Shown piece by piece: positions 7,507 to 33,792 of a stretch of DNA of 64,000 nt (the stretch's first letter is position 1; every line of letters starts with the position of its first letter). The stretch covers positions 992,001 through 1,056,000 of the forward strand of contig CAVPZX010000002.1 in NCBI GenBank assembly GCA_963710375.1. Direction: 5' to 3'. Source of the DNA: Nitrospirota bacterium. Its GTDB lineage: Bacteria > Nitrospirota > Thermodesulfovibrionia > Thermodesulfovibrionales > Dissulfurispiraceae. Below the pieces are notes generated by a model. That model was not told where the DNA came from. It ran no database searches and saw nothing but the letters and a program-made list of their open reading frames with translations. The position numbers were made by a program, and so were the translations under genes.

Positions 7507-9919
<2,413 letters not shown>

Positions 9920-9931
9920 GTGAAGCATGCT

Positions 9932-10000
9932 TGTCGGTTAACGCATAAAGTGAAAAACTTAACACATATGATGAAAAAAATTAACGCATAAAATGAAAAA
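9932..10000 (+). repeat. gyrB-proximal transposon end: TGT plus three packed TnsB-type sites
   Basis: TTAACGCATAAAGTGAAAAA (9938), TTAACACATATGATGAAAAA (9959), TTAACGCATAAAATGAAAAA (9981). Confidence 0.9.
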
Positions 10001-10298
10001 AGTTAGTTCTGTGTCGGTTAAGTTAAGGGATGTGTCAGATAAAGGATACAAAAATAAGGAAAGAAGCAAACGATTTAAAGAAGGGTTTCTGACTGACGAA
10101 GACATAAAGCGGATAAGGAAGAAACTGGGATTCACCCAAAAGCAGATGGCTGAAAAATTAGGGGTTGGTCTGAAGACTTTCGCTCGTTATGAGAACCTCT
10201 CAGTCCGCCAGGGCAAGGCGATGGATAATTTGTTGAGGATATTCGATAAATATCCAGAAGTTATGGCAGTTTTTGATAAAAAAATTGCATCTTCTTAA
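9993..10298 (+). CDS. XRE/HTH protein resembling the C-terminal domain of MqsA/HigA-type antitoxins; start uncertain
   Basis: LTDEDIKRIRKKLGFTQKQMAEKLGVGLKTFARYEN; the ATG overlaps the transposon end. Confidence 0.6.
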   Translation: MKKVSSVSVKLRDVSDKGYKNKERSKRFKEGFLTDEDIKRIRKKLGFTQKQMAEKLGVGLKTFARYENLSVRQGKAMDNLLRIFDKYPEVMAVFDKKIASS

Positions 10299-10315: not shown

Positions 10316-11252
10316 ATGTGTTCTATAGCCGCTGATGAGGCTCAATTTAGATTGCCAGAAGATGGCAATACCTACACGGCTGAAATAATTGATCGATGTC
10401 TGGATCTTATTTTTCATGGTATTTGGTCAGGTATCGATCAAATGCGACTGCGTAGATGGTTTGCAAACTTTTGTACGGACGAGGAAAAGTATTTCGCTGC
10501 TTGTATCCTTGATTCTTTAATTTATCGCTCTGAAGATCAAACTATATCTTTAATATGGCACCTTTTTCAGAGAATTTTACCTGATCTGATTCGCTATGAC
10601 AGTAGTCCCATTGGCGATACTATTGACTGGCAGAACGCTTTAAAGAGGGAAAGTTCTGCTACGGATCCTCTTATAAGACTAGTCACAGTTGTCAGAAGAT
10701 CTGATCCCCCTACGAAAAGCGCATATGTAATAGCTAGGCTTATGAAAAGGCACCTCTTCATAGATGAGCGATGGATTATTAAGCCATGGGAGGTCTCAGA
10801 TAAAATTAAACAGGGTGTGAAAATATTTCTTTTTATTGATGATTTTCTAGGGACTGGTGATCAATTCACTTCTTTTTTTAAGAGTGAGGACTTAGTTAAA
10901 CAATTGCCTCATATTTATGCCGCCTATGTCCCGCTTGTTGCTCATCAAACGGGAGTGAAACATTTGCGAGATACGTTTAGCGGTCTTAGAGTGACTTCAG
11001 TTGAAACTCTTGATGATTCTCACAATATTTTCGGAAACGACAGTAGTTGTTTTAAGGATGGGACTAACACTCCTGATATAGCTAAACAATTTTATTATGA
11101 GTCTGTTGCGAACAAGAAAGATGTTTATTTCGGAGACGGGTTATGGAGATCTCGGCTTGACATATGCGTTTTCTCATGCTGCTCCTGATAATTGTTTGCC
11201 TCTGCTCTGGTGGCCTCATGCTGTTTCGTGGTCTCCACTCTTTGATAGGTGA
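10316..11252 (+). CDS. Phosphoribosyltransferase-like protein (conflict-effector type), frameshifted near 11100-11135
   Basis: PRPP-loop FLFIDDFLGTGDQF; alternate frame gives GYGDLGLTYAFSHAAPDNCLPLLWW...WSPLFDR, stopping 3 nt before the next ATG. Confidence 0.75.
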
Positions 11253-11255
11253 AAT

Positions 11256-13244
11256 ATGAATAGGCTAAAGACGTCTTTGCAAGATGTTTTTTCAATGAAT
11301 CGTGCTGAGGAGATTGGCTACGACGTATGGCGTCATTTTGTAGTTCCGCCCTTTTTTAATTATCTGGACCTATACACTGCCAGAAAGCCACGGGTAATCA
11401 TTGGCGGCAGGGGTTGTGGCAAAACAATGCTTCTGAGGTACCTATCGCATAAGAGCATGTTTTCACCTAATCGTGAGAGTATTCCGGAAAATGCTCTTTC
11501 CCATATTGGACTTTTTTGGCGTGCTGATACCCAATTCTGCAGCGCAATGAGGAAGCGTAATGTGCCTGAGGATGTATGGGAGTCAGCGTTTGGCCACTTA
11601 GCTGCACTTATATTGGGAATTGAGGTGCTTGATAGCCTTGATAGCATCGCACTCAGCAGATCCGGAGCTCTTAATCCTGAAGATGTGGAGAATATTGATT
11701 TCGGGATGCTACAGTCCTTTGATGATAAACTCCCTTCAACTGCTCATGAGCTCCGAAAGACGCTTAATAGTTATCTGTTAGAATTAATAACTTGGGTAAG
11801 TGATGTGAGAAAAGCTAGGGAACCTAATTTTTTGCCGGGCAAGTCATTTGTTTCAACTCTAATCACAATATTACAAGAACAACTGTCGGTACTGTCCAAG
11901 TCAACTTTTTTTGTTTATCTTGATGAATATGAAAATCTTTGTGATTACCAAAAGCGCATTATAAACACTTGGTTGAAACATAGTGAAGTTCCACTCATAT
12001 TCAATCTTGCAATGAAGAGAAATGCTTTTATTACCAACAAAGAAACTGTAGGAGCGGAATTACTCTCTGATATACATGATTATCGAGTTCATGATTTGGA
12101 AGAATATCTTGACAACGATGCTTATCCTATATTTGCTGCTGAAATACTTTTTTTGCACCTATCATTAACGGAGTATGATGACATTCCCATTGATGTAAAT
12201 ATGTTACGCGATCCAGATTTATTGGTGAAAAGAAAAGAAAAGATATATATAGAAAACATACTGGGAGCTGCTCAAAGCCTGTTCCCTGACATCTCTTTGT
12301 CTGAATTGGCAAGACTAGTATTTCAAGACAAAGCACTGTATTCAAAGCTGAATGAGCGCATTCAACAAGCGTTAGCTCATCGGAAATCTGATATTACATC
12401 AAATCGATTTATTAAACCGGATTTTGCAGAGGCGTCAATTGTGAATCAAGCCTTGCTTTACCGAAACAAATTGCAACCCGGAGAAATTATGCAAGAGATG
12501 GATATGTTGGCCGAAGGGAAGGACAATCGCTATACGGGAGATACGGATTGGATTCATAATAATTTTGTTGGTTGTCTCCTTCAATTGTACTCACCTTATT
12601 CAAGAGCGTGTCCTTTTTATGCCGGCTTTAAAACATTCTGCAAACTTTCGAGAGGCAGTATTAGGCATTTTTTGGAACTTTGTCACAATTCCATTTATCG
12701 AGCAATAGATGACGTCGAGGAATTTAAGAAACCAGTTGACTACATTAGGCAGGCGGAAGCGGCAAGCCAAGCTAGTGCCACTTTTTTACGCGAAATTAAG
12801 AGCTTTGGACCTTTGGGCAATCAGTTGCATGCTTTTGTACTTCGATTAGGCTCTCTTTTTGCTTTGGCTCATCGTCGCCCATCGCAAAGTGAATCAGAAC
12901 AGTCTCATTTCTCGATTAAAAATGGCAGAAGTCCATTAACTGCTGAGGACAACAATTTTCTTCTGGAGGCTGTTAAATGGTCAGTATTATTTGAACATTC
13001 TGGTACCAAGAAAAAAGCAGAATACATGCCGCAAACTATCGAATATGTTTTAAATCCTATTTATACACCATATTTCCATATAAGTTATCGCAAGAAAAGA
13101 AAGCTAGAGCTGTCAACTGATGAGGTTATAAGTTTAATTCGAGGCGATCTGAATGAGGTTACAACTCTTTTGAAACAATATGCGACCTCGTGGTTTGTTG
13201 ACCCTAACGAGGCTGCCCCTGTTCCTTTGTCGCTTTTCGAGTAG
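11256..13244 (+). CDS. P-loop ATPase, ORC/CDC6-like or STAND-like, with a helical C-terminus
   Basis: Walker A GGRGCGKT, Walker B FVYLDEYEN, later LSRGSIRHFLELC motif. Confidence 0.75.
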   Translation: MNRLKTSLQDVFSMNRAEEIGYDVWRHFVVPPFFNYLDLYTARKPRVIIGGRGCGKTMLLRYLSHKSMFSPNRESIPENALSHIGLFWRADTQFCSAMRKRNVPEDVWESAFGHLAALILGIEVLDSLDSIALSRSGALNPEDVENIDFGMLQSFDDKLPSTAHELRKTLNSYLLELITWVSDVRKAREPNFLPGKSFVSTLITILQEQLSVLSKSTFFVYLDEYENLCDYQKRIINTWLKHSEVPLIFNLAMKRNAFITNKETVGAELLSDIHDYRVHDLEEYLDNDAYPIFAAEILFLHLSLTEYDDIPIDVNMLRDPDLLVKRKEKIYIENILGAAQSLFPDISLSELARLVFQDKALYSKLNERIQQALAHRKSDITSNRFIKPDFAEASIVNQALLYRNKLQPGEIMQEMDMLAEGKDNRYTGDTDWIHNNFVGCLLQLYSPYSRACPFYAGFKTFCKLSRGSIRHFLELCHNSIYRAIDDVEEFKKPVDYIRQAEAASQASATFLREIKSFGPLGNQLHAFVLRLGSLFALAHRRPSQSESEQSHFSIKNGRSPLTAEDNNFLLEAVKWSVLFEHSGTKKKAEYMPQTIEYVLNPIYTPYFHISYRKKRKLELSTDEVISLIRGDLNEVTTLLKQYATSWFVDPNEAAPVPLSLFE

Positions 13245-13255
13245 GAGGGTTATTC

Positions 13256-14158
13256 TTGAAAATCACAATGCAGGAGTGTGACATGTCTGCGAAGCTTTGT
13301 TTTTTGAAAGATGATATTGCCTTAATGGGGGTATGCCTTGATGATAGAGGCGAGGCTGCAAAGAAATTTTTACATGACAGGGCTGATGATATATATGCAT
13401 TAGAATATAACGTGGACGATTTTACTCTCAGTGTTAATGGATCAGTTATAAATGCCGAGAATATTGACGATTTTCTCCATCCGTTTATAGGAAAATCGAT
13501 AGTGTTGGAAACTACTACACTTGGCTTTGTAGAAATTTTTTTATGTTGCAGGGCCCTTAAGAATTTAGGGATTCCAAAGTTTGATTTGATATATGTGGAA
13601 CCTCACGGTTACAACAGTCCTCGTAGGACTGCTTCACTTCTTAATAAACGAGATTTTGAGCTTTCTGGCGAGGTTCCAGGGTACCGGGCTATTCCGGGCG
13701 CAGCGATTATGTTGACAGATAGGCAGCCGCAATTAGGCGTATTTTTTCTGGGTTACGAAGAAAGGCGGCTTGAACAGGCCCTTGAAGATTATCAAATGAT
13801 TCAAACTTCTCGTTGCTGCTCGGTGTTCGGTGTTCCAGCATTTAAGCCTGGATGGGAAATGGATGCTTTTGCAAATAATATTAGGGTTATTCGAGATAAA
13901 AATGTCAGGGGCGGGATAAAATTTTGTGGTGCTGAGAATCCTGCTGCTGCTGTAAGTCTTCTTACTGATATTTACAAGGGACTCGAACCAAATGAAAAGA
14001 TGTTTATTGCACCTTTAGGAACAAAACCTCACGGCATAGGAGTTGCCTTGTTCGCTTCTGTCCACAAAGATGTAGGCATTCTTTACGATCATCCGAGACG
14101 GCGACATGGACGCAGTAGTGACGTGTCCAGGTGGCATTTGTATACGGTGGAATTTTAG
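13256..14158 (+). CDS. Uncharacterised Rossmann-like, possibly CARF-like protein
   Basis: Alternating beta/alpha pattern; IVLETTTLG, YVEP, FFLGYE, IAPLGTKP motifs; RBS GGAGG. Confidence 0.5.
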   Translation: MKITMQECDMSAKLCFLKDDIALMGVCLDDRGEAAKKFLHDRADDIYALEYNVDDFTLSVNGSVINAENIDDFLHPFIGKSIVLETTTLGFVEIFLCCRALKNLGIPKFDLIYVEPHGYNSPRRTASLLNKRDFELSGEVPGYRAIPGAAIMLTDRQPQLGVFFLGYEERRLEQALEDYQMIQTSRCCSVFGVPAFKPGWEMDAFANNIRVIRDKNVRGGIKFCGAENPAAAVSLLTDIYKGLEPNEKMFIAPLGTKPHGIGVALFASVHKDVGILYDHPRRRHGRSSDVSRWHLYTVEF

Positions 14159-14210: not shown

Positions 14211-14843
14211 TCAAGTATGTAGGGGTTTGTTGTGCCTGAGCTGCCCAACACATAAACGGGACCAGCTTTCCATTTTGCTTTTATAGCGGGATAATTTCTC
14301 GTATGAAATAAATCTGCAATCACTTATTGACTCTTCTGTTGATTTAATATTGGTGTCAGTAATAGTCCAAACTTCAACTACGCCGAAGTGTACACGACCG
14401 ACTGCGGTGCTGATGTCATTTATATAGCCTATTATTTGTTGAGTATCAATTAACGTTAAAGGTAAGAATACTTCTTCTTTAATCTCTCGAAGTGCTGACT
14501 TTCTTAATGTTGCCATAAAATCGATTTTCCTTTTACTTTTTACTATATCTTTTAATTCTACATGCCCACCAAGACCGATTGACAACTGTTCATGTAAACG
14601 TTTTTCTTTTCCTTTTATGGAACGTTTATACATTAAAAGCGAATTACTTTTCTTAAGTATTATGTAGGGAATAATCTGCCGGAAACCTGGGTCATACTCG
14701 ATGACTGAGCGTGGTGCAAACCACACGGGGCCTATTTGCAGCATTTCTGAAAGATCGAGCTGAGAAACGGGAATAAAGCCCTGAGTTTTTGTTTTTTCTT
14801 TTAAGATTCTTGTTTCTATACATAATACGCTTTCCCTTTCCAT
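14211..14843 (-). CDS. NUDIX-family hydrolase (YmaB/COG4112-like)
   Basis: EYDPGFRQIIPY, EKRLHEQLSIGLGGHVE, ALREIKEEV, VGRVHFG; ATG overlaps the MTase stop. Confidence 0.75.
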   Translation of the reverse strand: MERESVLCIETRILKEKTKTQGFIPVSQLDLSEMLQIGPVWFAPRSVIEYDPGFRQIIPYIILKKSNSLLMYKRSIKGKEKRLHEQLSIGLGGHVELKDIVKSKRKIDFMATLRKSALREIKEEVFLPLTLIDTQQIIGYINDISTAVGRVHFGVVEVWTITDTNIKSTEESISDCRFISYEKLSRYKSKMESWSRLCVGQLRHNKPLHT

Positions 14844-16087
14844 TAGTCTTTGGAACTCGTGCAAAGAGAGGGTTTTATGGAGGGAGAGGGAATATTTTCA
14901 TTTCCTAATTCATATAAAGGGAAAGAAAATAAATCTCTCTTACTTATTACCTGTGCACATACTCCATGGGCTTGAGCGCTTAACCAGTTCTGACCCTCGT
15001 AAGACGCAAACGAATCAAACGCTATCTTTCTAAATACTTTCCCCACCCGTATTCTAATTATACAATCGGTAAGCCAGCAAGTACCTGACTTAACAAACGT
15101 CACTTTTCCTATGCATCGTTTCCCCACCCGAGCAAGTAAAATATCACCTTTTCTTGCGATGATACCTTTTCCGGAAGCCTTATCTCTGAATTTTACCCCA
15201 TTTTGAAATAATTCTGGAAAATCCGATGTGTGAAAAAAGGGCAGTTTTGTCCCCAATAATTCTTTATGTGTAAAGCTGCCTCTGACTATTTCGGCGCCGA
15301 TGTCAGACAGTGTTAGTAATGTTTTTTGGGGAGTATTTCTTTGCATCAAATTATAGAAAGTGAAATCCATCCGGCGTAGCAAGTTGTCTACTGAAACAAA
15401 TATTGCCTTTTTGCAGATAGCCGCATCATCAGCCAAATATAAGGGGATTCTTGACAAAGGTTCTGCGTCTTTTCTGATTAAGAGAATATGAGTCCTGGCC
15501 TCTGTTTTTGTAAAGATTTTATCTGGCAACTGAATTACTTTAAATACCTGATGGTTTTGAAGTAATGCTTCGCGAAATAAAACATAATTGTGACCAGTCA
15601 ATAAACTATCGGGGAGAATTATCCCCATCTCTCCCCCCTTGCGGAGCATCTGAAGATTTTGTGCAAGAAAGACCAAGTCAGATGTTAATGTAGGCAATTT
15701 AGTACATGTTGATAAACCGGCGCACTTAAAAATGTCGTTTAAATGGATGTTATTTTCTATTTTAAGGTATGGCGGATTACAAATAGCGACATCTACACTC
15801 CCGATACTTAGCTTTAACTCCTGAGGTAATTTATGAGATAGCCCGTTTATATTAAATAATTTTGCAAAAGGGAAATCCTTTTTTAAAATGCTTATTCCTG
15901 ATGAGTCAATCTCTGCAGCATAGTATTTGGCTCTTTGCCAGCGGTCATGAGCTGCACGTAACAGTGAACCTCTGCCCGCCCCTAGCTCTAATATGTGCCT
16001 AGGTTCATTTTGCGGTATGCTATCTACAAGCAATCTTGCTATTTGCCTCTCTGTATAATAACAGGCAAGAGTATTCATAAACTCCAC
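14843..16087 (-). CDS. N6-adenine DNA methyltransferase with a C-terminal TRD-like region
   Basis: Motif I LELGAGRGSLL, motif IV ICNPPY, IILPDSLL, F..TEA.T. Confidence 0.85.
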   Translation of the reverse strand: MEFMNTLACYYTERQIARLLVDSIPQNEPRHILELGAGRGSLLRAAHDRWQRAKYYAAEIDSSGISILKKDFPFAKLFNINGLSHKLPQELKLSIGSVDVAICNPPYLKIENNIHLNDIFKCAGLSTCTKLPTLTSDLVFLAQNLQMLRKGGEMGIILPDSLLTGHNYVLFREALLQNHQVFKVIQLPDKIFTKTEARTHILLIRKDAEPLSRIPLYLADDAAICKKAIFVSVDNLLRRMDFTFYNLMQRNTPQKTLLTLSDIGAEIVRGSFTHKELLGTKLPFFHTSDFPELFQNGVKFRDKASGKGIIARKGDILLARVGKRCIGKVTFVKSGTCWLTDCIIRIRVGKVFRKIAFDSFASYEGQNWLSAQAHGVCAQVISKRDLFSFPLYELGNENIPSPSIKPSLCTSSKD

Positions 16088-16088
16088 A

Positions 16089-16319
16089 TTAGAAGGTCTC
16101 GGTATCTTTAATTAACTTATCCAATGTAAGACCTAAAGCGTCAGCAATCTTTTTCATTCTTAAAATACCCGGATCTTTTGTGGCGCCATTCTCAATTTTC
16201 AAGAGCCACGAATATGTAATTTCAGCCTTTCTTGCCAATCCTTCTTGAGTAAATCCTTTTTTTTCTCTTTGTTTCTTAACGAGATATCCAATAGCTTTAT
16301 CCGGCGTTGCATCTTCCAA
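16089..16319 (-). CDS. XRE-family HTH regulator (controller-like)
   Basis: REKKGFTQEGLARKAEITYSWLLKIENG...P....KIADAL; directly upstream of the MTase. Confidence 0.85.
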   Translation of the reverse strand: MEDATPDKAIGYLVKKQREKKGFTQEGLARKAEITYSWLLKIENGATKDPGILRMKKIADALGLTLDKLIKDTETF

Positions 16320-16681: not shown

Positions 16682-17341
16682 TTAATTATAATTTTCCTTA
16701 CAATCCATTTCTTCTGGGACCGATTCAGCGATTAATTCCCAGTGCGGCTTCCGATAAATGGATTGGGGTTTAAATCTCGTGAAGTCTTGATACTCAAGTC
16801 CTTTCCGCCGGACGATGGCATTTATTTGAGACTTTGCTTTTTTGATTTTTCTCTCTGCTGTACTCTTAGAGCAGCTGAATTTTTTTGCTACCTGCTCGTA
16901 CGTCAGTTTTTCGCCATAATACTTCAGGAGCATCTGGCGTGTTTTCTTTTCGTGGCCTGCAAGCAGAGTATCAACAAATGTTTTGACTTGTGCCAACAAT
17001 AGCCTGTTCAGGATATTTTCCGCTCTTAAGGGATATTCATGCTGTCCGGAAAAACCACGGGGAGTAACTTCGTCACTATAGCATTCATCCTGAGGCGCGG
17101 CTAATTCTCCTATATCGTCAACATATACCTCTTTTCCCTTTCTCTTACGGTAATCACTTCTAACCTTATGACGAACTTTTCGGAGATGACATTTAAAAGC
17201 GTCTCCTCGTGTCATAGAAGGATCTGCCCTGTAATAAAAAGTTTCCCTGCCCATCAGATATGTATCCGCAATGATGTCATGATTGTTTCTGCTGTAATAT
17301 CCAAGCCCATAGGCTTTACCGAGCTCGTCATTATTGAGCAT
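16682..17341 (-). CDS. Sigma-70 region-4-like HTH protein (ECF-like)
   Basis: RQMLLKYYGEKLTYEQVAKKFSCSKSTAERKIKKAK. Confidence 0.55.
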   Translation of the reverse strand: MLNNDELGKAYGLGYYSRNNHDIIADTYLMGRETFYYRADPSMTRGDAFKCHLRKVRHKVRSDYRKRKGKEVYVDDIGELAAPQDECYSDEVTPRGFSGQHEYPLRAENILNRLLLAQVKTFVDTLLAGHEKKTRQMLLKYYGEKLTYEQVAKKFSCSKSTAERKIKKAKSQINAIVRRKGLEYQDFTRFKPQSIYRKPHWELIAESVPEEMDCKENYN

Positions 17342-18056: not shown

Positions 18057-18704
18057 GTGTCGGTAAGAAGAATAACAAACGGCGGCAGGAAGGTGATTGG
18101 GAAATTCCCGAGTCTTAAGATGGGGAGGGCCGTATGGTGGGAGTCGCAGCTTGAGCGAGATTATATTTATTATTTGGAGGTGGACCGAGACATTGTTTCG
18201 TACAAAGAGCAGCCTCTGAAGATCCGCTATCTGCTGGATAGGAAAATTCACCACTATACACCGGACTTCCTGGTCTGGCGGACAGACAAACAACAAATAG
18301 TCGAGGTGAAGGATGAGGAAAGCGCCGGCAAGGAAGAGTACAGGCATTTGTTCCATATTGTTGCCCCGCTTTTCATGGAGGAAGGATATGAATTTGTGGT
18401 AGTGACTGAGAAGACAATTCGTCTCAGGCCTCTTCTGGATAATTTAAAACTGCTGCACAAATATTCCAGAACAATAATTTCGCATAAGCACCAGATTGAC
18501 GCGTATGCTTTTTTCTCAAGCGACGAAGACGGTACGCTGGGAAAGTTGGCGTCCTTCCTCAGAGCCAAGGGATCAGGCGCTGAAATAGCCTATGCCCTAA
18601 TTTATTGGGGTGTCATTGCGGTCAACCTTGCAAATCCTATTAATTCACAAAGCCAGGTGAGCCTGGCGGATGCATCGATGTTAACAAAGGAGAAGTGCGC
18701 GTGA
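18057..18704 (+). CDS. tnsA: TnsA endonuclease
   Basis: GKFPSLK...ESQLERDY...EQP...YTPDFLV...VEVK (PD-(D/E)xK). Confidence 0.9.
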   Translation: MSVRRITNGGRKVIGKFPSLKMGRAVWWESQLERDYIYYLEVDRDIVSYKEQPLKIRYLLDRKIHHYTPDFLVWRTDKQQIVEVKDEESAGKEEYRHLFHIVAPLFMEEGYEFVVVTEKTIRLRPLLDNLKLLHKYSRTIISHKHQIDAYAFFSSDEDGTLGKLASFLRAKGSGAEIAYALIYWGVIAVNLANPINSQSQVSLADASMLTKEKCA

Positions 18705-20954
18705 AAAATCACAGATTTGGGAAAGGGCAGAGGATTGCCATGGGAGGGCGTGAGTACATAATAGAAAGACGACTTCCTAACGGCGATCTTCAATTAAAAG
18801 ACATTGTAACCAACACATATATGGCAAAAGCGGCGGGGGAGCTTGTTAATGCTTTATTTAATGGCAATTTGGCCATGGTCGCCGATGAGCAACTCATTCC
18901 GTATGTCAGAAAAAATAGTGCTCGCGTGCTTAATGCGGATTTCACCCAATTGCCCGAGAGCGACAGAGAGAAGGCTAAACGGAAATACGCCTACGTCATG
19001 GAAATAATTAAGCGGGGCCTGGACAGGATCACAAAGCAATCTGTCGAGCCGGTTGTTAGTGAAGTAAGCAAAGAACTTAATGATTGTGCACCCCCCTCGT
19101 GGATTCAAGTCTACCGGTGGCACAGGGATTTCATCATATCGGGGGAAAACATTCGTTCCCTCGCACCTCTGACAAAGGCAAGAGGAAACCATAAGATACG
19201 ACTGTCGGAAGAAGTCACGGCTATAATCGAAACCATAATCAATGAAAAATACCTTGATACGCAAAGGGCCTCTGTTCTATCGACTTATGATACGGTGATA
19301 GCCAGAATAGCTCATGAAAACCAGCTAAGGCCAAAAGACGACCAGATAACAAAACCGAGCCAGATGGTTCTTTATCGAGCTGTTGCCAAACTCGATCCCT
19401 ATGAGGAGATGAAAGCGAGATATGGCAAAGCAGCAGCCGACTTGAAGTTCAACCCCGTCAAGCAAGGCATACGCCCTACCCGGGCGCTGGAGCGGGTGGA
19501 AATTGACCATACGAAGTTGGACCTCTTTGTTATAGACACTGAAAGGAAAATGCCCATTGGGCGGCCGTGGCTCACTACCGCAATTGACGTTTATACAAAG
19601 TGTATAGCCGGCATGTATGTCAGCTTTAATCCGCCTTCTTATCTGTCGGTTATGCAGTGCATGCGCCATGCGATAACACCCAAAGCATACGTTAAGCAGC
19701 GGTACCCGGAGATTCGGCATGAATGGGGTGCCTACGGCAAAATGGAAAGTGTCGTGGTTGATAACGGGAAGGAGTTCCACAGCACACATTTTGAAGACGC
19801 ATGCCTCCAGCTTGGGATTGTCCTTCAGTACGCGCCGATCAAACTTGCTTGGTACAAACCGAGCATCGAGAGATATTTCGGTACATTGAACACCAGATTG
19901 CTTCACCAACAGCCTGGCACGTCTTTCTCGAACATCGTTGATAAGGGAGATTATGACCCCAGGGAAAACGCAATTATCGACTTCAATACCCTCATGTCAG
20001 TGCTGCATAAATGGATTGTGGATGTTTACCATTACGATGAACATAGAGGCATACATGATATCCCGGCGCTTAGATGGGAAAAAGCGATAGAGGAATTCCC
20101 GCCGGCCCTCCCTTCCTGCAGGGAAGAACTTGATGTCATGCTCGGCATGATTGAAAAAAGGGTAATCTCCAAATCCGGGATCGAGCTCCACGGCCTTTTT
20201 TATAACGACGAGAGCCTTGCCCTGTTGCGCCGCAGGAGGAAAGAAGAGGGGAAGGTGACGGTCAAGTTCGATCCTGGCGACCTTTCGATGATCCATGTTT
20301 TCGATGAAGACAGCAATACTTTTATTCCTGTGCCGGCTCAGGCTGTCACATATAGTGAAGGCCTGACCCTCTGGCAACACAATGTAATCAGGAGATATAC
20401 CCGCAATTATATCGATGAGAACTGCGATATAATCTCCCTGGCCCTTGCAAAAGAAGAGATTCAGAGGATGGTCGAGAATGCATGGAACAGCAGCAAAAAA
20501 AACGGGACTCGCCAAAAGGCGGCGCGCTGGCTGAATCTTTCTCAAGAAAATCAGCTTGAGACCTCATTACAGGCGGATGCCTTCGGGGGGTCGGCAAGGT
20601 TACCGCTGACAAAGCCGGTTCGACGGGCTTGTTATGCCGGCAGCGAGCGTGCATCCGCTAAACCGCATATCTGATGTGGGAACAGCCATTTGTTGCGACA
20701 ATTCTGAAGACTCGAGAGAAGCAGAAGAAGGCATCGTGATAACGAAGGAACCGATCAGAAAGAAAATGGGCGCTTTAAAAAAGGGAGCGGGAAGGCCGAA
20801 GAAAGAATTATCTGTTGTTAATGGTGCCGCAAAGAAGGCGGGCGACCAAAGAATTAAAGGCACTTCATCCTTTGCCGCAACCTCGATTAATGTTGAAGAG
20901 CACAGCGATTTGTCAGAATGGGATTACAGTTACGCCATGCCCGGGAGGGCATAA
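18701..20954 (+). CDS. tnsB: TnsB DDE transposase; C-terminal tail apparently frameshifted (20610-20674)
   Basis: EIDHT, VDNGKEF, KPSIERYF catalytic motifs; GTGA overlap with tnsA; ORF 20634-20954 ends DLSEWDYSY just before tnsC. Confidence 0.88.
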
Positions 20955-20957
20955 GTA

Positions 20958-22019
20958 ATGACGCAGGGAAACGCTTTGAAAGTTGAGGATGTTTGCGGGA
21001 TGGGAAAGCCCCTGGAGGTTAAGAAAGATTTTGGTGCTATGACAATGAAAGAGAGGGTCAACCTCATAGAGCATATTTTTATTTCTCACCCCCAGCTTAA
21101 GAATATTGTGAAGAAAATAGATGAATGCCATCAGGACTCCAAGGTATCAATTGAGCCCAAATGCCTTTTCATAACCGGGAGGCCCGGCTGCGGCAAAACG
21201 ACGATCGCAAGGTTTTATGAAAGCCGTTATCCGCGCAGGGCTACGGTTGGAGGTGCGGAGATTCCCGTGCTCTCCTCGACAATTTTCTCACCGGCAACAG
21301 TGAAAGGGATGGCGACGGGCCTGCTTTATAGTTTGGGCGACCCCATTGCGGATAAGGGAACAATAACCAGCCAAACAATCAGGTTATACAAAATGATCAA
21401 AGACTGCAAAACGGAGGTAATTGTTCTCGATGAATTCCAGCATCTTATTGATAAGGATTCGAACAAGGTCCTTCAAGTCGCTGCAGATTGGTTGAAGAAT
21501 CTTCTAAACAACACCGCTGTCCCCATGGTGTTGATCGGCATGCCGTCATCGGTAAAGATACTCGACGCGAACGAGCAACTGAGGCGACGTTTCCTGAACA
21601 GGATGTGCCTCAACCCGTTTGGATGGAATACGCCTCGGGAACAAAGGGATTTCATCACATTGTTGAAGTTCATAGAAAAGGCATTGCCGCTCAAAGAGAT
21701 ATCGGGACTCTATTCTTACGAGACAGCTTTCCGGCTTTATTGCGCATCGCGGGGAGTCATTTCCAACCTCATGAAGATTGTGCGCAAGGCTGCAATATTA
21801 GCGATCAGAAAAGGCCAGGAAAGAATATCTCATGACTTGCTTATCGTGGCTTATGAAGATGAGATGGAGGAGAGTAGTGTTGCAGCAGACAACCCGTTTC
21901 TGCTTGATGTCGATAAGCTAACGGCGCCGCTCCTTGAGCAGAATGACGAGAAAGGACTTGGAAAAAGCGTCCGCGGGAGGACAGGCGTAAAACTCGCTGA
22001 CGTGTTAAGCACAAGGTAG
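20958..22019 (+). CDS. tnsC: TnsC/TniB AAA+ ATPase
   Basis: Walker A GRPGCGKT, Walker B IVLDEFQH, NEQLRRRF. Confidence 0.92.
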   Translation: MTQGNALKVEDVCGMGKPLEVKKDFGAMTMKERVNLIEHIFISHPQLKNIVKKIDECHQDSKVSIEPKCLFITGRPGCGKTTIARFYESRYPRRATVGGAEIPVLSSTIFSPATVKGMATGLLYSLGDPIADKGTITSQTIRLYKMIKDCKTEVIVLDEFQHLIDKDSNKVLQVAADWLKNLLNNTAVPMVLIGMPSSVKILDANEQLRRRFLNRMCLNPFGWNTPREQRDFITLLKFIEKALPLKEISGLYSYETAFRLYCASRGVISNLMKIVRKAAILAIRKGQERISHDLLIVAYEDEMEESSVAADNPFLLDVDKLTAPLLEQNDEKGLGKSVRGRTGVKLADVLSTR

Positions 22020-22033
22020 GGGGAATTTAAGAT

Positions 22034-23941
22034 ATGAGTGGAAAAATTACATTGCTCAGAATACTTAGGCCTCATAACGATGAGAGTTTCCCGGGTTTTC
22101 TTTTAAGGCTTGCGGAGGCGAACGGGTATGAGAGGTTTTCCTGGATATTGCAGATGGCTGGAATAACACACCCGGTAAATTATTTGCCGGATCCGGACCC
22201 ATTAAAGGACAGGATAGATTTAAGCGAGCTTTCTAATATAACTAATGTCAGCGCGGAAGATCTGGGGTCGTTACTTTTCGAGCGACATGATGGGGGCAGA
22301 CACTTCAAGCAGTTCGAGATTTTTGGGCAGGCGGTTCCCCGGTATATGGTGAGGTTTTCGAGGACAAAAGTTTGCCCAGCATGTCTGAAAGAGGCTAACT
22401 ATAGCCGTAAAATATGGGACCTTGCGCCGGTGACTGTGTGCCCCATTCATAAATGTTTTCTTTATGACGTATGCCCGAATTGCTTGAGTCCCATTACATG
22501 GAACCGGGCTCATGTGAGTATCTGTAACTGCACGTACGATTTCCGGGAGGCTCCGCTGTTAAAAGTTAGAGAAGAGAATTTATCATTGGCAAAGTATATT
22601 TATTACCTATGTGGCATGCCGCTGCCCGGTGAGATCGTTCAAAGCGATAATCCTTTATATGCTCTGGATCTGCAGCATCTGCTGCTTGCCGTCTTTTTTA
22701 TAGCGGGGCAACTCCACGGCTTTACGGAGACAACGGGCAAATTCTCCGCGCCCTCTTCCCGAAATATAGTTCTTCTACATTCACTTGCCGAAGCATTCCA
22801 GGTTTTTGAAAATTGGCCCCATAACTTCAACGCGTTCCTTGTAGGCTTGAGGGACCGGTATAACGTTTATGAAGGATCGACAGGGCTTAATGCGGATTTC
22901 GGGTAGTTTTACGAGTATATTTATAAGAATTTCGCCTCTTCAAAATTTCAGTTTATTAGGAGCGCATATGAAAAGTACTTGAGCGAACAATGGGATGGGG
23001 GATATCTATCGGCGAAATGTAAGTTCCTGACCAGGCGAGGCATTAGCCACAAGAAATTTGTCACTAGAATAAAAGCTCAGGAGATACTGCATGTTAAGGA
23101 AAAGGAAATTGATCGACTGCTTAAAACTGGGGAGTTGTTTGGCATTACGAAAAAAATGAAATCCAGAACGATGTATTTGATCGACGTCAATAGCGTCAAA
23201 AGAGTAAGAGAGGCAAATAAAGAACATATGCGCCTCAAAGAAGTAGTGGGTTTCCTGGGAATAGGAGAAAAGACAATAATGGAGTTGGGCCGAGCAAAAA
23301 TATTATGCATATATAACCGGGAGGTAAATAATTCCCTATGCTGGACTTTTAAGCGCACGGATGTCATATCCCTAATGCAAAAATTTGAGGAACTTGCAGA
23401 GGGAAATGAAAGCTGCTCGCTGAAACGAATAACTTTTTCTACCTGTTTGAGAAAGCTTTCCGGCGGCAAAGTGGGATTAATAGAGTTGGTGAAGGCTGTT
23501 CTGGCTGGGGATACCCGCCCCTGCGGGAAAGGCCCGGGAAGAGGATTGCGCAGTTACCTTTTTTATGACAAGGACATTAATGAATTAGTGAGGGCTAATA
23601 GAGAAAAAAATAGGGGTAATCTGTATTCCGTTACGGAAGCGTCGGAAATGCTTGGCCTCAAGGAGGAAGTTGTCTATTTTTTGACAAAGAAGGGAATTAT
23701 TCCGGTCGAGAGGGTAACTAATGGGCAGAAAACGGCGGTTTTTGTGACCAAGGAATCAATTAGTAACTTTGAAGACACATACACAACCTTGTCTTCACTT
23801 GCCAAGGATAATTATACGTCTCCCAAACGCCTTGCACTCGCGCTAATGGATAAAGGGATATCGCCTGTCTCGGGCCCCCTGATTGACAGTGGAAGACAAT
23901 ACATATTTAAGAGAACTGATCTCCAACGGTATGCTGCGTAA
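22034..23941 (+). pseudogene. tniQ: TnsD-like TniQ target selector (~635 codons) with an in-frame TAG at 22904-22906
   Basis: PHNDESFPGFLLRLAEANG, CPACL, CPIH, CPNC, CNC zinc motifs; ORF 22979-23941 is in the same frame, the gap is open, and it carries HTH repeats. Confidence 0.85.
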
Positions 23942-24672: not shown

Positions 24673-25194
24673 ATGAGGGTAGCTCCCGGGAGAAAAAAAG
24701 CTTTACCTGTGGATATGGACGAATCTCAGTTAAATCGCCTCAGAAGTTATGCATGGAACTACTTTGCTTATCATGCAGAGCAGAGAATTAAGACTTTTAA
24801 CTTTTATATTATTCTTGTAGCAGTAATCATCGGCGGCTGCGGAACAGCTCTATCTAATATAAATAAAGAATACTTTAGATTGCTTCTTTCTCTTCTCGGG
24901 TTCCTTCTCACAATTATTTCAGTCGCGTTCGCTTTCCTCGATCGAAGAAATAAGGAATTAGTTCGAAATGGTGAAGCTGCATTAAGGTACCTTGACGAAT
25001 TCGAAGAACTACCAAGCGAAGGATCTGCGCCGCATGTTTTACAATTATTTTCAAGGGATGATCATATCTGTTCGAATAAGCCGAAAGGTCTATCCATCAG
25101 GGCTCATATTTCTTACTCCCACGTATTTAGGAGTATTTTTCTTGTTTTTGGCGTGATAGGCCTGATTATAGGCATAGCGTGTTTGATATATTGA
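24673..25194 (+). CDS. Small 3-TM membrane protein
   Basis: Three hydrophobic segments; YAWNYFAYHAEQR and FLDRRN motifs. Confidence 0.6.
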   Translation: MRVAPGRKKALPVDMDESQLNRLRSYAWNYFAYHAEQRIKTFNFYIILVAVIIGGCGTALSNINKEYFRLLLSLLGFLLTIISVAFAFLDRRNKELVRNGEAALRYLDEFEELPSEGSAPHVLQLFSRDDHICSNKPKGLSIRAHISYSHVFRSIFLVFGVIGLIIGIACLIY

Positions 25195-27262: not shown

Positions 27263-29899
27263 TTAGAGTAAACTCTTAGCGCACCGGAAACCAGCATTCC
27301 CGCAAAGGTAGCCAGGGAGGTACGAGTTGATGCTGGCGCATCGGCAGTAAGCGGATCCATCGGCCCAAGAACCGCCATGAAGCGCTTGCCTGTCCTCGGT
27401 CCACTCCCACATGTTACCGGCCATGTCGTAGCAGCTGTAAGGACTTACGCCGTTAGAATACTTATTGACGGGTGTTGTTTTTCCAAGACCCGACTCTGTA
27501 GTGTTGCACCTCTTCCGATCGAATTGATTGCCCCAGGGATAGACCCGTCCGTCAATGCCTCTAGCAGCCTTTTCCCACTCCTCCTTGGTTGGTAGACGCT
27601 TGTCAGCCCATTCAGCATAGGCACGGGCACCATGCCAGAAGACAAAAATCACTGGGTGCTTCTCAAAGCCTGACTTGACCACAAACCGCTTTTTATTAAA
27701 ACGAATGTGACAATGTTCCCCCGCGTAGATCCCTTTCAGGTCTATCCATTGTTCTTTTTCTACAGCGGTGCAACCCATGGCATTCAAAAAATCGGTGAAT
27801 TCAGCATTCGTCACAGGGTATTTATCTATGAAAAAACTCTCCTTGATGTTGGAAATTCGAATATTATCATCCGCGCCTATTATGAACTGGCCTGATGGAA
27901 CGAAGACCATATCGGACGGTTCCTCAATCCCAACCGTTGGTTCAATATATTCATAAACAGAGGGCGTTATCATGTAGGACACAAAGAGGGCGATCTCATT
28001 AGTGATATTTTTTTTCCGTGCCATATTCTTTGGTATTTCCTTTGCTATCTTGCATGCGACAAAATATTCTATAAATGATCGATGAGCGAAGGCATAGTAC
28101 CCCTCCGCATCATTGCGTTGGAGAAAGGTAGAATTTCGTATCTGATAGTCCAGATTATCGAGCGACAGCCTCAATGTATCCTTAACAGGCGCATCGAAAA
28201 ACCTATTAATGGCCTCCAGCAGGGTATTAAAATGTAGCTTATACTTTTCTCTTGTGAACATATAAAAGGCAAGCTCCTCCATAAAGAGCATGATGCCTTT
28301 GGGCAGCTTTGCTTCTGACCGCTTCTGTTCACGTTGTTCCCATGCCTCTGTAATTACTTGGTATAGCCTTCCTGAGGTTATCGTTCCTTTTGCGTTTCTG
28401 ATTGCCTCGATATCTTTGACGATCATCTCGATCAGTATGGGACGGCTTGCGAGATCCTTCATATCGAAGACTTTTGTTAAGGTATTTCTCCAAAACTGCT
28501 CTGCCTCTTTTTCTCCGAGGCAAAGACTCAAATAGGTTTTTATTTGGGAATCGGCGAATGGGCATATATAGACCCTTTCAAAACGGGGTCTTTGGAACCC
28601 GCTCGGCCCTGCTTGAGCGCCCTGTACGAGAGCAAGGTGATCTTTTTCTTCATAAACACTTCTAAAAAATTGCGTCCTGCTCGTCAGGATCACTTTGTGA
28701 TATGGCGCGGCAATCATGGACAGGTTCTCGATTTCCCTGAGAACCGTTTTCTTGTCGAACGTTACCGATAATTCATCAAAACCGTCTAGGATGAGGATTA
28801 TCTCACCCTCTTTCCCCTTGGTTCTGGCATCAATCTCGGCTTGGGCAGCCTCCTGCCAGCCTCTTGTCCGGACTTGGCTGAGGCTCGCGATAACAGGGAT
28901 GTATTTCGGTCCTTCAAGATCAGAGGCGAGTTTGTAGCAGAATGACGTTTTGCCGATGCCATAGTCGCCGAGCACTGCCAGGAGCTTCCGATTCGGGTCC
29001 TTCAGCCATTCATGGGTATACGTGTGCAGCAACTTCGTACTCTTTTGCTTGATGTCTTCAGCATGGCAGAACGGTTCAATGTAATGCTTTGGCACATATT
29101 CGCAATACTTTCTTTGCTCACTTGGCGGCGGAGGCGCCTCTAAGGGAGGATCCAAGACAATTATTGTTCTCGGGAAGCCGCATGCTGATAGCCATTTATT
29201 AACGGGTTTAAGAATCCGGTTTGTTTTCTTCTCCTCTTCTTCTAAGCGTTCACCTATTATCGAATTACCCTTCCAGTGCCATATGACTATCCCTTGGTTA
29301 ATCTCAACTGACGTGATATGCTCCCTGATCCCGCCCTGATCCATCCGGATATAAGCCTGATCCATCTCATCGGCAAGCCGTAATAATGCAGTTATGCGAA
29401 TAAGGTTGATGGGTTCCTGACAAAGCTGTTCGTCAGCGAAATTCTCGGGGAGGTCGGCAATAGGGCAAATGTCCTCAGTGGAATGTCCAAAACAGACATT
29501 AGCGACGGCTTCAGCAATTGGCGGTATCATCTTCGTGCGATGATGCGGACGAAATGGCCCGAAGAAGTATTTATCTGGATCATTTAAAATATATTTCCTA
29601 GATCGCAGGGAATGATCTTTGGGGTCAATGCGGTCGCTTTCGTCGCGATAGCCGATATCGTGCAGATAGACGGCATAGAGCAGGATGAAAATCTCAACTG
29701 GATTGAGACCTCGTTTGAAAGCCTCGGGGATAAGCTGATCGAGTTTGACTTCCAACCTTTTGGAATGATCGATCCCATTCTTGTCGATGCCGTCAAGCCA
29801 TTCAGAAGCATTTTTTTTCACCTTTTCGATATGTTCGTGAAGGTTGACTCCCCCATCGCAAGTTGTTTTCCCCAACAGCAGTTCATGCAATGCGCCCAT
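27263..29899 (-). CDS. HD-phosphohydrolase + NACHT/STAND NTPase + FGE-sulfatase (SUMF1-like) fusion
   Basis: H..S, LHDIG, LADEMD; Walker A GDYGIGKT, Walker B ILDGFDE; PVTN, RLPTKEEWEKAARG, YPWGN, DMAGNMWEW, GFRC; RBS AAGGGAG before ATG 29899. Confidence 0.85.
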   Translation of the reverse strand: MGALHELLLGKTTCDGGVNLHEHIEKVKKNASEWLDGIDKNGIDHSKRLEVKLDQLIPEAFKRGLNPVEIFILLYAVYLHDIGYRDESDRIDPKDHSLRSRKYILNDPDKYFFGPFRPHHRTKMIPPIAEAVANVCFGHSTEDICPIADLPENFADEQLCQEPINLIRITALLRLADEMDQAYIRMDQGGIREHITSVEINQGIVIWHWKGNSIIGERLEEEEKKTNRILKPVNKWLSACGFPRTIIVLDPPLEAPPPPSEQRKYCEYVPKHYIEPFCHAEDIKQKSTKLLHTYTHEWLKDPNRKLLAVLGDYGIGKTSFCYKLASDLEGPKYIPVIASLSQVRTRGWQEAAQAEIDARTKGKEGEIILILDGFDELSVTFDKKTVLREIENLSMIAAPYHKVILTSRTQFFRSVYEEKDHLALVQGAQAGPSGFQRPRFERVYICPFADSQIKTYLSLCLGEKEAEQFWRNTLTKVFDMKDLASRPILIEMIVKDIEAIRNAKGTITSGRLYQVITEAWEQREQKRSEAKLPKGIMLFMEELAFYMFTREKYKLHFNTLLEAINRFFDAPVKDTLRLSLDNLDYQIRNSTFLQRNDAEGYYAFAHRSFIEYFVACKIAKEIPKNMARKKNITNEIALFVSYMITPSVYEYIEPTVGIEEPSDMVFVPSGQFIIGADDNIRISNIKESFFIDKYPVTNAEFTDFLNAMGCTAVEKEQWIDLKGIYAGEHCHIRFNKKRFVVKSGFEKHPVIFVFWHGARAYAEWADKRLPTKEEWEKAARGIDGRVYPWGNQFDRKRCNTTESGLGKTTPVNKYSNGVSPYSCYDMAGNMWEWTEDRQALHGGSWADGSAYCRCASINSYLPGYLCGNAGFRCAKSLL

Positions 29900-30196
29900 A
29901 GAAGCTCCCTTAAAGGTGAATGTGAAAGCCAAATCAATATCTTTCAAGTATTGTACATAAAACATCAGATGAATTGGAAAAGAACGAGAGGTGTTGCAAT
30001 AGAGACGATACCATATGGAAATTAATTTAATATTGAAAAAGTTGAACGATGAATGGTAATTGCGGCTATAGCTGATAGCTAGCATGTGATCGACCGGGCC
30101 TCGAATAGGATCCAATATATTTTAGAGCAAATACTCGAAATTAAAATAGAATTTGCATTTTAGCCTGGGTCAACAATTGAACGGTGATGTGTGGAA

Positions 30197-30330
30197 TTTT
30201 TCATTTTTTGCGCAAAATCTTCCGGAATTTTTCACTTTATGTGCAAAATATTTTCATTTTATAAGATAATAGGTTTTGTAACTTATTGAAATTACATCGG
30301 GGCAACTTTCACTTTTTGAGAAAACCTATA
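30197..30330 (-). repeat. Internal Tn7-like distal-type end (three sites, IHF-like gap, terminal site; ends CCTATA rather than CCTACA)
   Basis: Same layout as 33649-33780: TTTCATTTTTTGCGCAAA, TTTCACTTTATGTGCAAA, TTTCATTTTATAAGATAA, TAACTTATTGAAA, TTTCACTTTTTGAGAAAACCTATA. Confidence 0.8.
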
Positions 30331-30340
30331 GCATGCTTGT

Positions 30341-30410
30341 TGTGGGTTGACGCATAAACTGCAATTCCTGACTCATAAGTTGCAGTAAATTGACGCATAA
30401 GCTGCAATAA
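30341..30410 (+). repeat. Internal Tn7-like proximal-type end of a related element
   Basis: TGTGGG then TTGACGCATAAACTGCAA, CTGACTCATAAGTTGCAG, TTGACGCATAAGCTGCAA with the same 21/22-bp spacing as 9932-10000. Confidence 0.8.
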
Positions 30411-31104: not shown

Positions 31105-31770
31105 ATGATACTAACAGACAAGCTCATAAAAGATGTATGTAGTAAAGGGGATATCAAGATTGTGCCATTTGAGGATTGTCAAATTGAACCCGCCTCATAT
31201 GATTTGCGAGTAGGGAAACACGGTGCTACGACAAGTACAAAAAAAATTGTTGACATAGAAAAGCAAGGATACATGCTGATTGAACCGGGGGATTTTGCTA
31301 TTGTCGGTGTTTTGGAAGAGATTACTCTTGGATCAAAATATGCGGGACGTATAGGCTTGCGCTCAAAATTTGCCCGAAAGGGATTAATAGCAACAGCAGG
31401 GTCGCAAGTTGATCCGGGCTATCACGGTCGTCTTAAAATTGGACTTACCAACTTGACACCTAAAGCAATATCTTTGCCGTTTAAGGATGATTTTATAACA
31501 TTAGAGATTCATGAACTTACAGAACCGGCGTTAAAACCATATGATGGTCCCTATCAAGATCAATTAGATTTAAGTCCAGCGGATATAGAAGCAGTTACCG
31601 AAGGGAGCGGAATGGCACTTTCAGAAATGATGGTGACATTAAGCTCTCTGAGTCAAAACGTGGGAAGGTTAAGCACGGATTTTGAAGTATTCCAAAAAAC
31701 GCTTAAAATAGTTGGCGGAATCCTAAGTTTACTTATTGCCATAGCAACCATTATTGTTGCTTTAAAATAA
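31105..31770 (+). CDS. dCTP deaminase (dUTPase-fold) homolog with a C-terminal hydrophobic helix
   Basis: MILTD, EPASYDLRVG, RSKFARKGL, VDPGYHG; tail IVGGILSLLIAIATIIVALK. Confidence 0.8.
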   Translation: MILTDKLIKDVCSKGDIKIVPFEDCQIEPASYDLRVGKHGATTSTKKIVDIEKQGYMLIEPGDFAIVGVLEEITLGSKYAGRIGLRSKFARKGLIATAGSQVDPGYHGRLKIGLTNLTPKAISLPFKDDFITLEIHELTEPALKPYDGPYQDQLDLSPADIEAVTEGSGMALSEMMVTLSSLSQNVGRLSTDFEVFQKTLKIVGGILSLLIAIATIIVALK

Positions 31771-33648: not shown

Positions 33649-33780
33649 TTTCATTTTATACGTTAATTTTTCAGGATATTTTCACTTTATGCGTTAAAGC
33701 TATTTCATCTTATACGTTAAATTCCTCCATAACTGATTGAAATTTGGTCGCCTTAATTTCATTTTATGTGTTAACCTACA
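33649..33780 (-). repeat. Distal transposon end: three sites, IHF-like site, terminal site, ACA
   Basis: Sites at 33649, 33679 (exact inverse of 9938-9956), 33703, 33757; TAACTGATTGAAA 33730-33742; followed by CATGCT. Confidence 0.9.
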
Positions 33781-33792
33781 CATGCTGTTATT

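Follow-up and report, generated by a model that had tools for sequence, protein, structure and literature searches.

In the PUA-Cal-HAD system, m6-dAMP from the breakdown of host DNA is the immune trigger, and the authors also connect its PUA family with N6 methylases that have no restriction enzyme (10.64898/2026.01.15.699771). The phosphoribosyltransferase (PRTase) of Retron-Eco11 cuts phosphoribosyl pyrophosphate (PRPP) by about 50% (PMC12746101), and BREX joins a methylase to an ATPase of the ORC/Cdc6 clade (10.1101/2025.10.09.681413). The cassette described here has a PRTase, an ATPase of the ORC/Cdc6 clade, a CARF protein and a methylase, and it lies in a stretch of 64,000 nucleotides (nt) from a Nitrospirota bacterium of the Dissulfurispiraceae (contig CAVPZX010000002.1, positions 992,001 to 1,056,000 of the forward strand), which we call the window. 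Known CARF domains bind cyclic oligoadenylates, and we know of no ligand for those CARF proteins that belong to neither CRISPR nor CBASS. Solitary methylases, frequent as they are, mostly lack an explanation as well, and the cassette joins these two puzzles within four genes. Its parts are catalogued as domain families, reportedly defined by Makarova 2020 and Nicastro 2023, and by the features that define those systems the cassette is outside restriction-modification, BREX, retrons and PUA-Cal-HAD. We found no study of the four-gene unit in the literature, experimental or other, as an earlier note on this DNA had already said of experiments; papers that define the families, or the supplements of preprints, may already draw the neighbourhood.

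The earlier note had read three genes of the window, for a PRTase, an ORC/Cdc6-like ATPase and a CARF-like protein, as a candidate nucleotide-based defence triad. The three identities are confirmed by PF24390, by PF24389 and by PADLOC CARF6 together with a CARF fold found by structure search, and the context makes the proposed defence role likely; we consider it highly probable that the cassette serves in defence or conflict. The unit, however, has four core genes and not three:

10316..11252, + strand: PRTase-CE, the predicted effector (PF24390, E 1.5e-51, for the intact protein P0244; the assembly has one spurious base at 11102)
11256..13244, + strand: AAA+ ATPase of the ORC/Cdc6 clade, 662 amino acids (aa) (PF24389, E 8e-108, 362 bits)
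13256..14158, + strand: single-chain tandem CARF protein (PADLOC CARF6, E 9e-78, 260 bits)
14843..16087, - strand: N6-adenine-type DNA methyltransferase, 414 aa, with an NPPY motif (PF02384, E 4.8e-17; PADLOC MTase_II, E 4e-73)

We compared the window with 87 related loci picked by the ATPase alone, which are the best 80 of 156 metagenome matches together with three genome, two viral and two plasmid regions. The scan of genome contigs, with one protein as query, gave the three genome loci, and viral contigs gave three loci, of which the distant L096 is dropped from the counts. The 53 loci with four complete genes reduce to 47 distinct ones at 90% ATPase identity. The PRTase is upstream of the ATPase in 81 of the 82 loci with room for it, and CARF is downstream in 66 of 67; the two exceptions are a PRTase cut by its contig and an ATPase-CARF fusion. 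The genes thus co-occur elsewhere, which the earlier note had proposed to check. An N6-type methylase is present in all 61 loci with room: in 46 it is on the same strand directly after CARF, in 10 it is convergent as in the window, in three it is upstream of the PRTase, and in two it is about 2.9 kb off. Because it occurs in 61 of 61 loci, the methylase is the fourth core gene, as constant as the other parts, and a triad as the whole unit is ruled out. There is no fifth core gene, the largest neighbour family beyond the four core families reaching 10 of the 87 loci. Neither a nuclease nor a cyclase family recurs beside the cassette in the 87 loci (one of the searches behind this took 150 proteins from 204 remaining neighbours, those left out being mostly the shortest), and the three core partners of the methylase have no nuclease domain, so that we find no cognate restriction endonuclease. 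Other defence genes (HsdR, GmrSD, AbiH and AbiV) lie near the cassette elsewhere. Evolutionary distances correlate at 0.92 between ATPase and CARF and at 0.50 between ATPase and methylase, both values being inflated by kinship, and ATPase/CARF pairs that are almost the same can have neighbouring methylases with a mean identity of about 27%.

More distant loci separate the constant parts from the exchangeable one. In two samples of 401 genomes (802 in all), PF24389 scores above cut-off in 15 and 26 genomes, and we fetched 28 places with E < 1e-18, with the genomes of the window and of L001 excluded. CARF follows the ATPase in 27 of the 28 (22 by a first profile and five more by a broader one). 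A methylase adjoins in 22, and it is of C5 type in seven, N6/N4 type (PF01555) in nine, Dam type in three and the type found in the window in three. The effector slot is occupied by a PRTase in six cases, a fused kinase in eight, HD-CE in four, a fused TIR in three, a fused ParA in two, a calcineurin-like protein in one, and proteins of no recognised type in four. Since the effector varies while CARF and the methylase persist, the core is methylase, CARF and ATPase, and the PRTase is a swappable effector. The earlier note had the PRTase make or destroy a nucleotide; what survives of this is the effector role, rather than that of a demonstrated signal maker. In L118 (3468-6332) and L119 (4367-7180), a ParA-like domain is fused to the ORC-CDC6-like ATPase, and CARF and a window-type methylase follow. 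L128 and L130 have PRTase-CE, ATPase and CARF with no methylase seen; L128 instead adjoins HAD and PfkB-type genes.

The four-gene cassette is mobile: many bacteria have it, and so do conjugative plasmids. PLSDB has 153 records matching the ATPase (130 from Klebsiella, 133 conjugative) and 154 matching CARF, most of which are one near-identical Klebsiella lineage (the rows at 34.5% identity). Gene order was inspected in three plasmid records; in p628-KPC the four cassette genes come directly after repA. With relatives on about 150 plasmid records, mostly of that one lineage, the cassette could alter phage susceptibility there. In the chromosome of the window, the cassette is cargo of a Tn7-like element, and in 20 relatives nothing but gyrB and the element end matches this DNA, in line with the mobility that the earlier note had supposed.

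As assembled, the three co-directional open reading frames (ORFs) are 10316-11188, 11256-13244 and 13256-14158. The true stop of the first gene is at 11250-11252, in another frame in which a conserved tail continues, 3 nt from the ATPase start; the gap of 11 nt between ATPase and CARF is read directly. The tight spacing of the earlier note is therefore correct, its 3-nt gap holding for the true stop. We checked the assembly against Logan contigs from four runs of two studies; one of these runs possibly represents the source sample, and the remaining three concur. The base at 11102 is absent from the contigs of all four runs, and the intact protein P0244 is on record, so the frameshift in the PRTase was introduced by the assembly and the gene is whole in the organism; these contigs rule out a true pseudogene. 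Two more single-base insertion errors break genes in this assembly, at 8498 in gyrB (the base is absent in three of four runs, and the fourth has no gap row there) and at 20619 in tnsB (absent in four of four), making three in total. Substitutions at 12737 and 18624 also distinguish the assembly from the short-read contigs, and the remaining frameshifts of the same genome assembly deserve doubt.

P0244 matches the whole PF24390 model (positions 1-253) with 176 bits for a cut-off of 27, and the PRTase matches the PADLOC retron model PRTase_III-A at E 9e-11; its sequence finds nothing in the PDB at E 1. The PRPP-binding loop is IDDFLGTG, with D175-D176, and the two aspartates are kept in 76 of 76 homologues, the strict motif in 60. 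As the homologous PRTase of Retron-Eco11 lowers PRPP, this protein probably acts by analogy as a PRPP-consuming effector. In the ATPase, Walker A (GGRGCGKT, 50-57) and Walker B (YLDEYE, 221-226) are both intact, and they are kept in 74 and 71 of 75 homologues. Its structure model (mean predicted local distance difference test score, pLDDT, of 90) resembles ORC subunits, Cdc6/Orc1 of archaea and BrxC, with Z of 10-13 (Cdc6/Orc1 at Z 11-12, BrxC at Z 10.6), the Foldseek E-values being weak. We predict that the ATPase is a switch or scaffold. Other effectors are fused to its N-terminus and the PRTase is encoded in the same position, which suggests that PRTase and ATPase are physically coupled. 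In L045 (2321-4408), the first 450 ATPase residues are fused in frame to CARF, either by a deletion or as a natural fusion.

The CARF protein has no Pfam match and no effector domain. Its motif APLGTKP is at 252-258; together with the PRPP loop and the two Walker motifs, all the motifs listed in the earlier note are present. In the model (pLDDT 89), the C-terminal half aligns with Can2, Csm6 and Card1 at Z of about 12 and a root-mean-square deviation of 2.6-3.1 over about 117 residues. Both halves align with 6sce, which we take to be Can1, at Z 10.9 over 217 residues, and SAVED domains also align across both. PADLOC, which the earlier note had suggested as a check, and the structure search both place this protein with CARF. 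All 35 diverse homologues compared keep R31, Y119 and K257, with one basic residue per half, as might be expected if the two halves enclose a pocket that binds phosphate. No SMODS or Cas10 is found with three models in the organism's own genome (98.8% complete), and the cassette has no cyclase. The earlier note had assigned the sensing of infection to the ATPase; we infer instead, with fair confidence, that CARF is the nucleotide sensor of the cassette. The methylase gene converges on the other three genes in the window and has a putative target-recognition region at its C-terminus. Its NPP[YF] motif is kept in 61 of 62, and judging from this sequence the enzyme is very likely active on DNA.

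Two small genes adjoin the methylase in the window:

14211..14864, - strand: NUDIX-like accessory gene (PF00293, weak, E 0.011; PDB 3e57, Tm1382, E 1.7e-22), overlapping the methylase stop
16089..16319, - strand: helix-turn-helix (HTH)-like ORF of 76 aa, XRE-type as read by eye, with its end 1 nt ahead of the methylase start

A gene of nucleotide pyrophosphatase type is found at 21 of the 87 loci, mostly at most 150 nt from the PRTase start: a trimeric dUTPase in 10, a dimeric dUTPase in seven, a NUDIX protein in three (L020, L022 and L027) and PRA-PH in one. Counting only the 62 loci that have at least 700 nt upstream, 17 have the accessory. The window gene belongs to this accessory slot, which dUTPases take elsewhere. 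All four NUDIX loci, window included, fall within one six-row ATPase clade (support 98), and the accessory labels are clade-clustered in general, so that they represent a handful of independent events and not 21. A dUTPase that is merely a host gene at the integration site is unlikely, as the genes beyond it differ between loci. The thymidylate synthases ThyA or ThyX adjoin the cassette in 3 of the 87 related and 3 of the 28 distant loci. The 76-aa ORF is a possible controller, and it has one homologue among the loci searched; a conserved HTH regulator was sought at the related loci and none was found. A search of a protein atlas gave unnamed clusters only.

In the explanation that we favour, these parts would form a tripwire. 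The host chromosome would carry the mark of the methylase, and once a phage sets off the breakdown of host DNA, methylated nucleotides, or short fragments, would be released. Bound by CARF, these would lead the ATPase to oligomerise, whereupon the PRTase would use up PRPP and the infection would be aborted. The dUTPase or NUDIX accessory might clean the nucleotide pool or drain it further, which is the weakest step. The sensor seems indifferent to the methylase protein and to its target site, because methylases have been exchanged more freely than ATPase and CARF (0.50 against 0.92), and this would fit a mark at the level of the base. An active-looking methylase without nuclease, which any other class can replace although CARF and ATPase keep together, suggests that the methyl mark itself matters. 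A CARF requires a small nucleotide as its ligand, and neither the cassette nor, with three models, the genome yields a cyclase to make one; PUA-Cal-HAD and Retron-Eco11 supply precedents for the trigger and for the effector. A methylated CARF ligand is accordingly a serious candidate to which we give slightly less than an even chance, and the mechanism as a whole is tentative. More speculative still is a general class of nuclease-free tripwire immunity, in which any methylase could set the alarm, a double CARF would read methylated deoxynucleotides without a cyclase, and the ATPase would relay to interchangeable death effectors.

Several observations weigh against the tripwire. We found no precedent for a CARF domain that binds a methylated deoxynucleotide, the established CARF ligands being cyclic oligoadenylates. 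The tripwire does not account for uracil, at which the dUTPases and thymidylate synthases hint, and the DNA-binding ORC/Cdc6 fold suits a mechanism like that of BREX. A methylase is not confirmed at six of the 28 distant loci (it is weak or unconfirmed at two and absent from four, at least two of these four with a broken ATPase). On a quick CARF tree, methylase class changes five times (minimum three) and effector four times (minimum four), so the grouping by effector is no worse than that by methylase class and the methyl mark does not stand out; the cases that lean to methylase class are L118/L119, L122/L124 and L110, with weak support.

The BREX-like mechanism would distinguish self from non-self: the methylase marks self and also serves the ATPase as reader, so that the ATPase can detect incoming DNA without the mark and turn on the effector, and CARF is a second gate. 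The ATPase fold resembles DNA-binding Cdc6/Orc1 and BrxC, BREX itself pairs a methylase with an ATPase of this clade, and the methylase retains its putative target-recognition region, but no reader varies with the methylase, as the near-identical ATPase/CARF pairs beside divergent methylases indicate. The four methylase classes in the slot are hard to fit into one protein complex, PglZ, BrxA, BrxB and BrxL do not recur among the neighbours, and we regard this explanation as unlikely. The same exchange of methylases bears on a guard system, where the methylase is bait, and CARF and ATPase fire the effector on noticing that a phage DNA mimic inhibits the methylase or that S-adenosylmethionine (SAM) is lost. 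An active-looking methylase without a nuclease agrees with this, and DNA mimics or SAM depletion would presumably be caught with a methylase of any class; such a guard, however, needs a protein contact that survives swaps among the classes, which makes it rather improbable.

Methylation might also protect the carriers of an addiction or exclusion module, its loss or the entry of a rival element then releasing the PRTase. The position directly after repA on p628-KPC, the conjugative plasmids (133 of 153 records) and the transposon cargo of the window fit such a module, yet most plasmid records are the one Klebsiella lineage, defence genes lie nearby elsewhere, and effectors such as these are what abortive defence typically uses; we see little chance for it. 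If CARF instead detected products of phage metabolism of the dUTP/dUMP type, with dUTPase, NUDIX and thymidylate synthase holding the resting level low, the accessory genes and the ThyA or ThyX neighbours would have a reason, but the accessory is missing from about three quarters of the loci, its labels reflect few independent events, and the near-universal methylase goes unexplained, so that sensing of uracil is improbable. Finally, PRTase, dUTPase and thymidylate synthase are all metabolic folds, as they would be in an ordinary metabolic or salvage operon. The patchy, mobile distribution (the DNA in none of the 20 relatives, PF24389 in 15/401 and 26/401 genomes) and the exchange of the PRTase for TIR, kinase and HD effectors make this explanation, which the earlier note had considered too, very improbable.

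The insertion that carries the cassette follows dnaA, dnaN and gyrB in the window, and its other features are:

9932..9999, + strand: Tn7-like left end, three repeats of 18-19 nt, starting 12 nt past the gyrB stop
9993..10298, + strand: MqsA-like HTH gene, 101 aa (PF15731, E 2.5e-12; TIGR03830 above cut-off)
18057..23941, + strand: tnsA, tnsB, tnsC and tniQ module of the carrier (PF08722, PF09299, PF05621, PF06527)

Inverted copies of the left end are at 30199-30324 and 33649-33780, and similar element ends follow gyrB in the relatives L005, L006 and L008. The earlier note had the PRTase operon as the first cargo of a transposon; the end at 9932 and the tns module support the transposon, but the first cargo gene, ahead of the PRTase, is the MqsA-like one. 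It is a possible local regulator, with only one weak match across the related loci, and so not conserved with the cassette. The gene stretch is AT-rich, as had been noted: its GC content is 40.3%, where the genome has 47.4%, and among 826 genome segments of the same size 9 reach so low a value. A scan for promoters and terminators is at chance level (28 against 21.4 and 7 against 6.6).

Two Tn7-like elements appear in tandem past the gyrB stop (9920-9999, 30199-30407, 33649-33786), and each of the three junctions has the 6-mer CATGCT; Tn7 usually makes a 5-bp duplication. L005 has a short palindromic remnant, and a gyrB attachment site may be undescribed. In L086 and L087, the cassette is again Tn7-like cargo, adjoining homologues of the tnsABC genes of the window. 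TniQ (22034-22906) and the next, multi-HTH ORF (22979-23941) are separate, and the contigs have no indel there, so the split may be real. A gene with an HTH of Sigma70 region 4 type (16682-17341, - strand) lies between cassette and tnsA. The cargo also has a gene of the 8xMP octameric membrane protein family (24673-25194, + strand) and a 950-aa protein with HD-CE, NACHT-like NTPase and FGE-sulfatase domains (27263-30115, - strand), weakly like DS-8, which is likely a second defence gene of the same element. Between the inner and outer element ends, a dCTP deaminase-like gene (31105-31770, + strand; TIGR02274 above cut-off) is possibly of the nucleotide-depleting defence type.

Compared with known systems, the likeness to PUA-Cal-HAD is one of proposed logic only: a methylated nucleotide from host DNA, a ligand-binding sensor and a nucleotide-targeting effector. 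Members of the PUA-Cal-HAD family are linked to solitary N6 methylases and to MazG-like enzymes (10.64898/2026.01.15.699771). The cassette of the window differs in having a tandem CARF in place of PUA as its sensor, an AAA+ ATPase in between, a PRTase as effector and a built-in methylase; a profile search of the unit finds none of the features that define PUA-Cal-HAD. Type III-A retrons such as Retron-Eco11 share the homologous PRTase effector family (the PRTase_III-A match above), but their sensing module is wholly different, and no reverse transcriptase recurs among the neighbours (non-coding RNA was not searched for). BREX type 1 also has an N6-adenine methylase with an ORC/Cdc6-clade ATPase, alike at the level of fold only, and no classical restriction enzyme. 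The ATPase of the window is half the size, its methylase of 414 aa is far below the PglX cut-off, CARF and PRTase are present, and the neighbours have no recurring family of PglZ size and no Pfam match for PglZ, BrxA, BrxB or BrxL; the BREX paper mentions no CARF or PRTase in its accessible part (10.1101/2025.10.09.681413).

In HINPO, ParA is fused or adjacent to an ORC-CDC6-like NTPase, as it is by fusion in L118 and L119; the accessible description names no CARF or methylase (10.64898/2026.10.19.760177), and the unit of the window has no ParA or HEPN. ShosTA, Ophion and DS-32 are validated anti-phage systems with a PRTase (10.1101/2025.09.30.679545; 10.1101/2025.01.08.631726). Their partners differ from those in the window, being ShosA in ShosTA, rSAM and PHP in Ophion and NADAR in DS-32, and the DS-32A model scores 16 bits on the window for a cut-off of 250. 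ShosA is presumably DprA-like. The accessible part of PMC4012209 names no PRTase or ORC. Catalogued PF24389/CARF6/'-CE' effector cassettes, finally, are like the window, in which all three families match strongly, and siblings of it with HD-CE, TIR and kinase effectors are among the distant loci.

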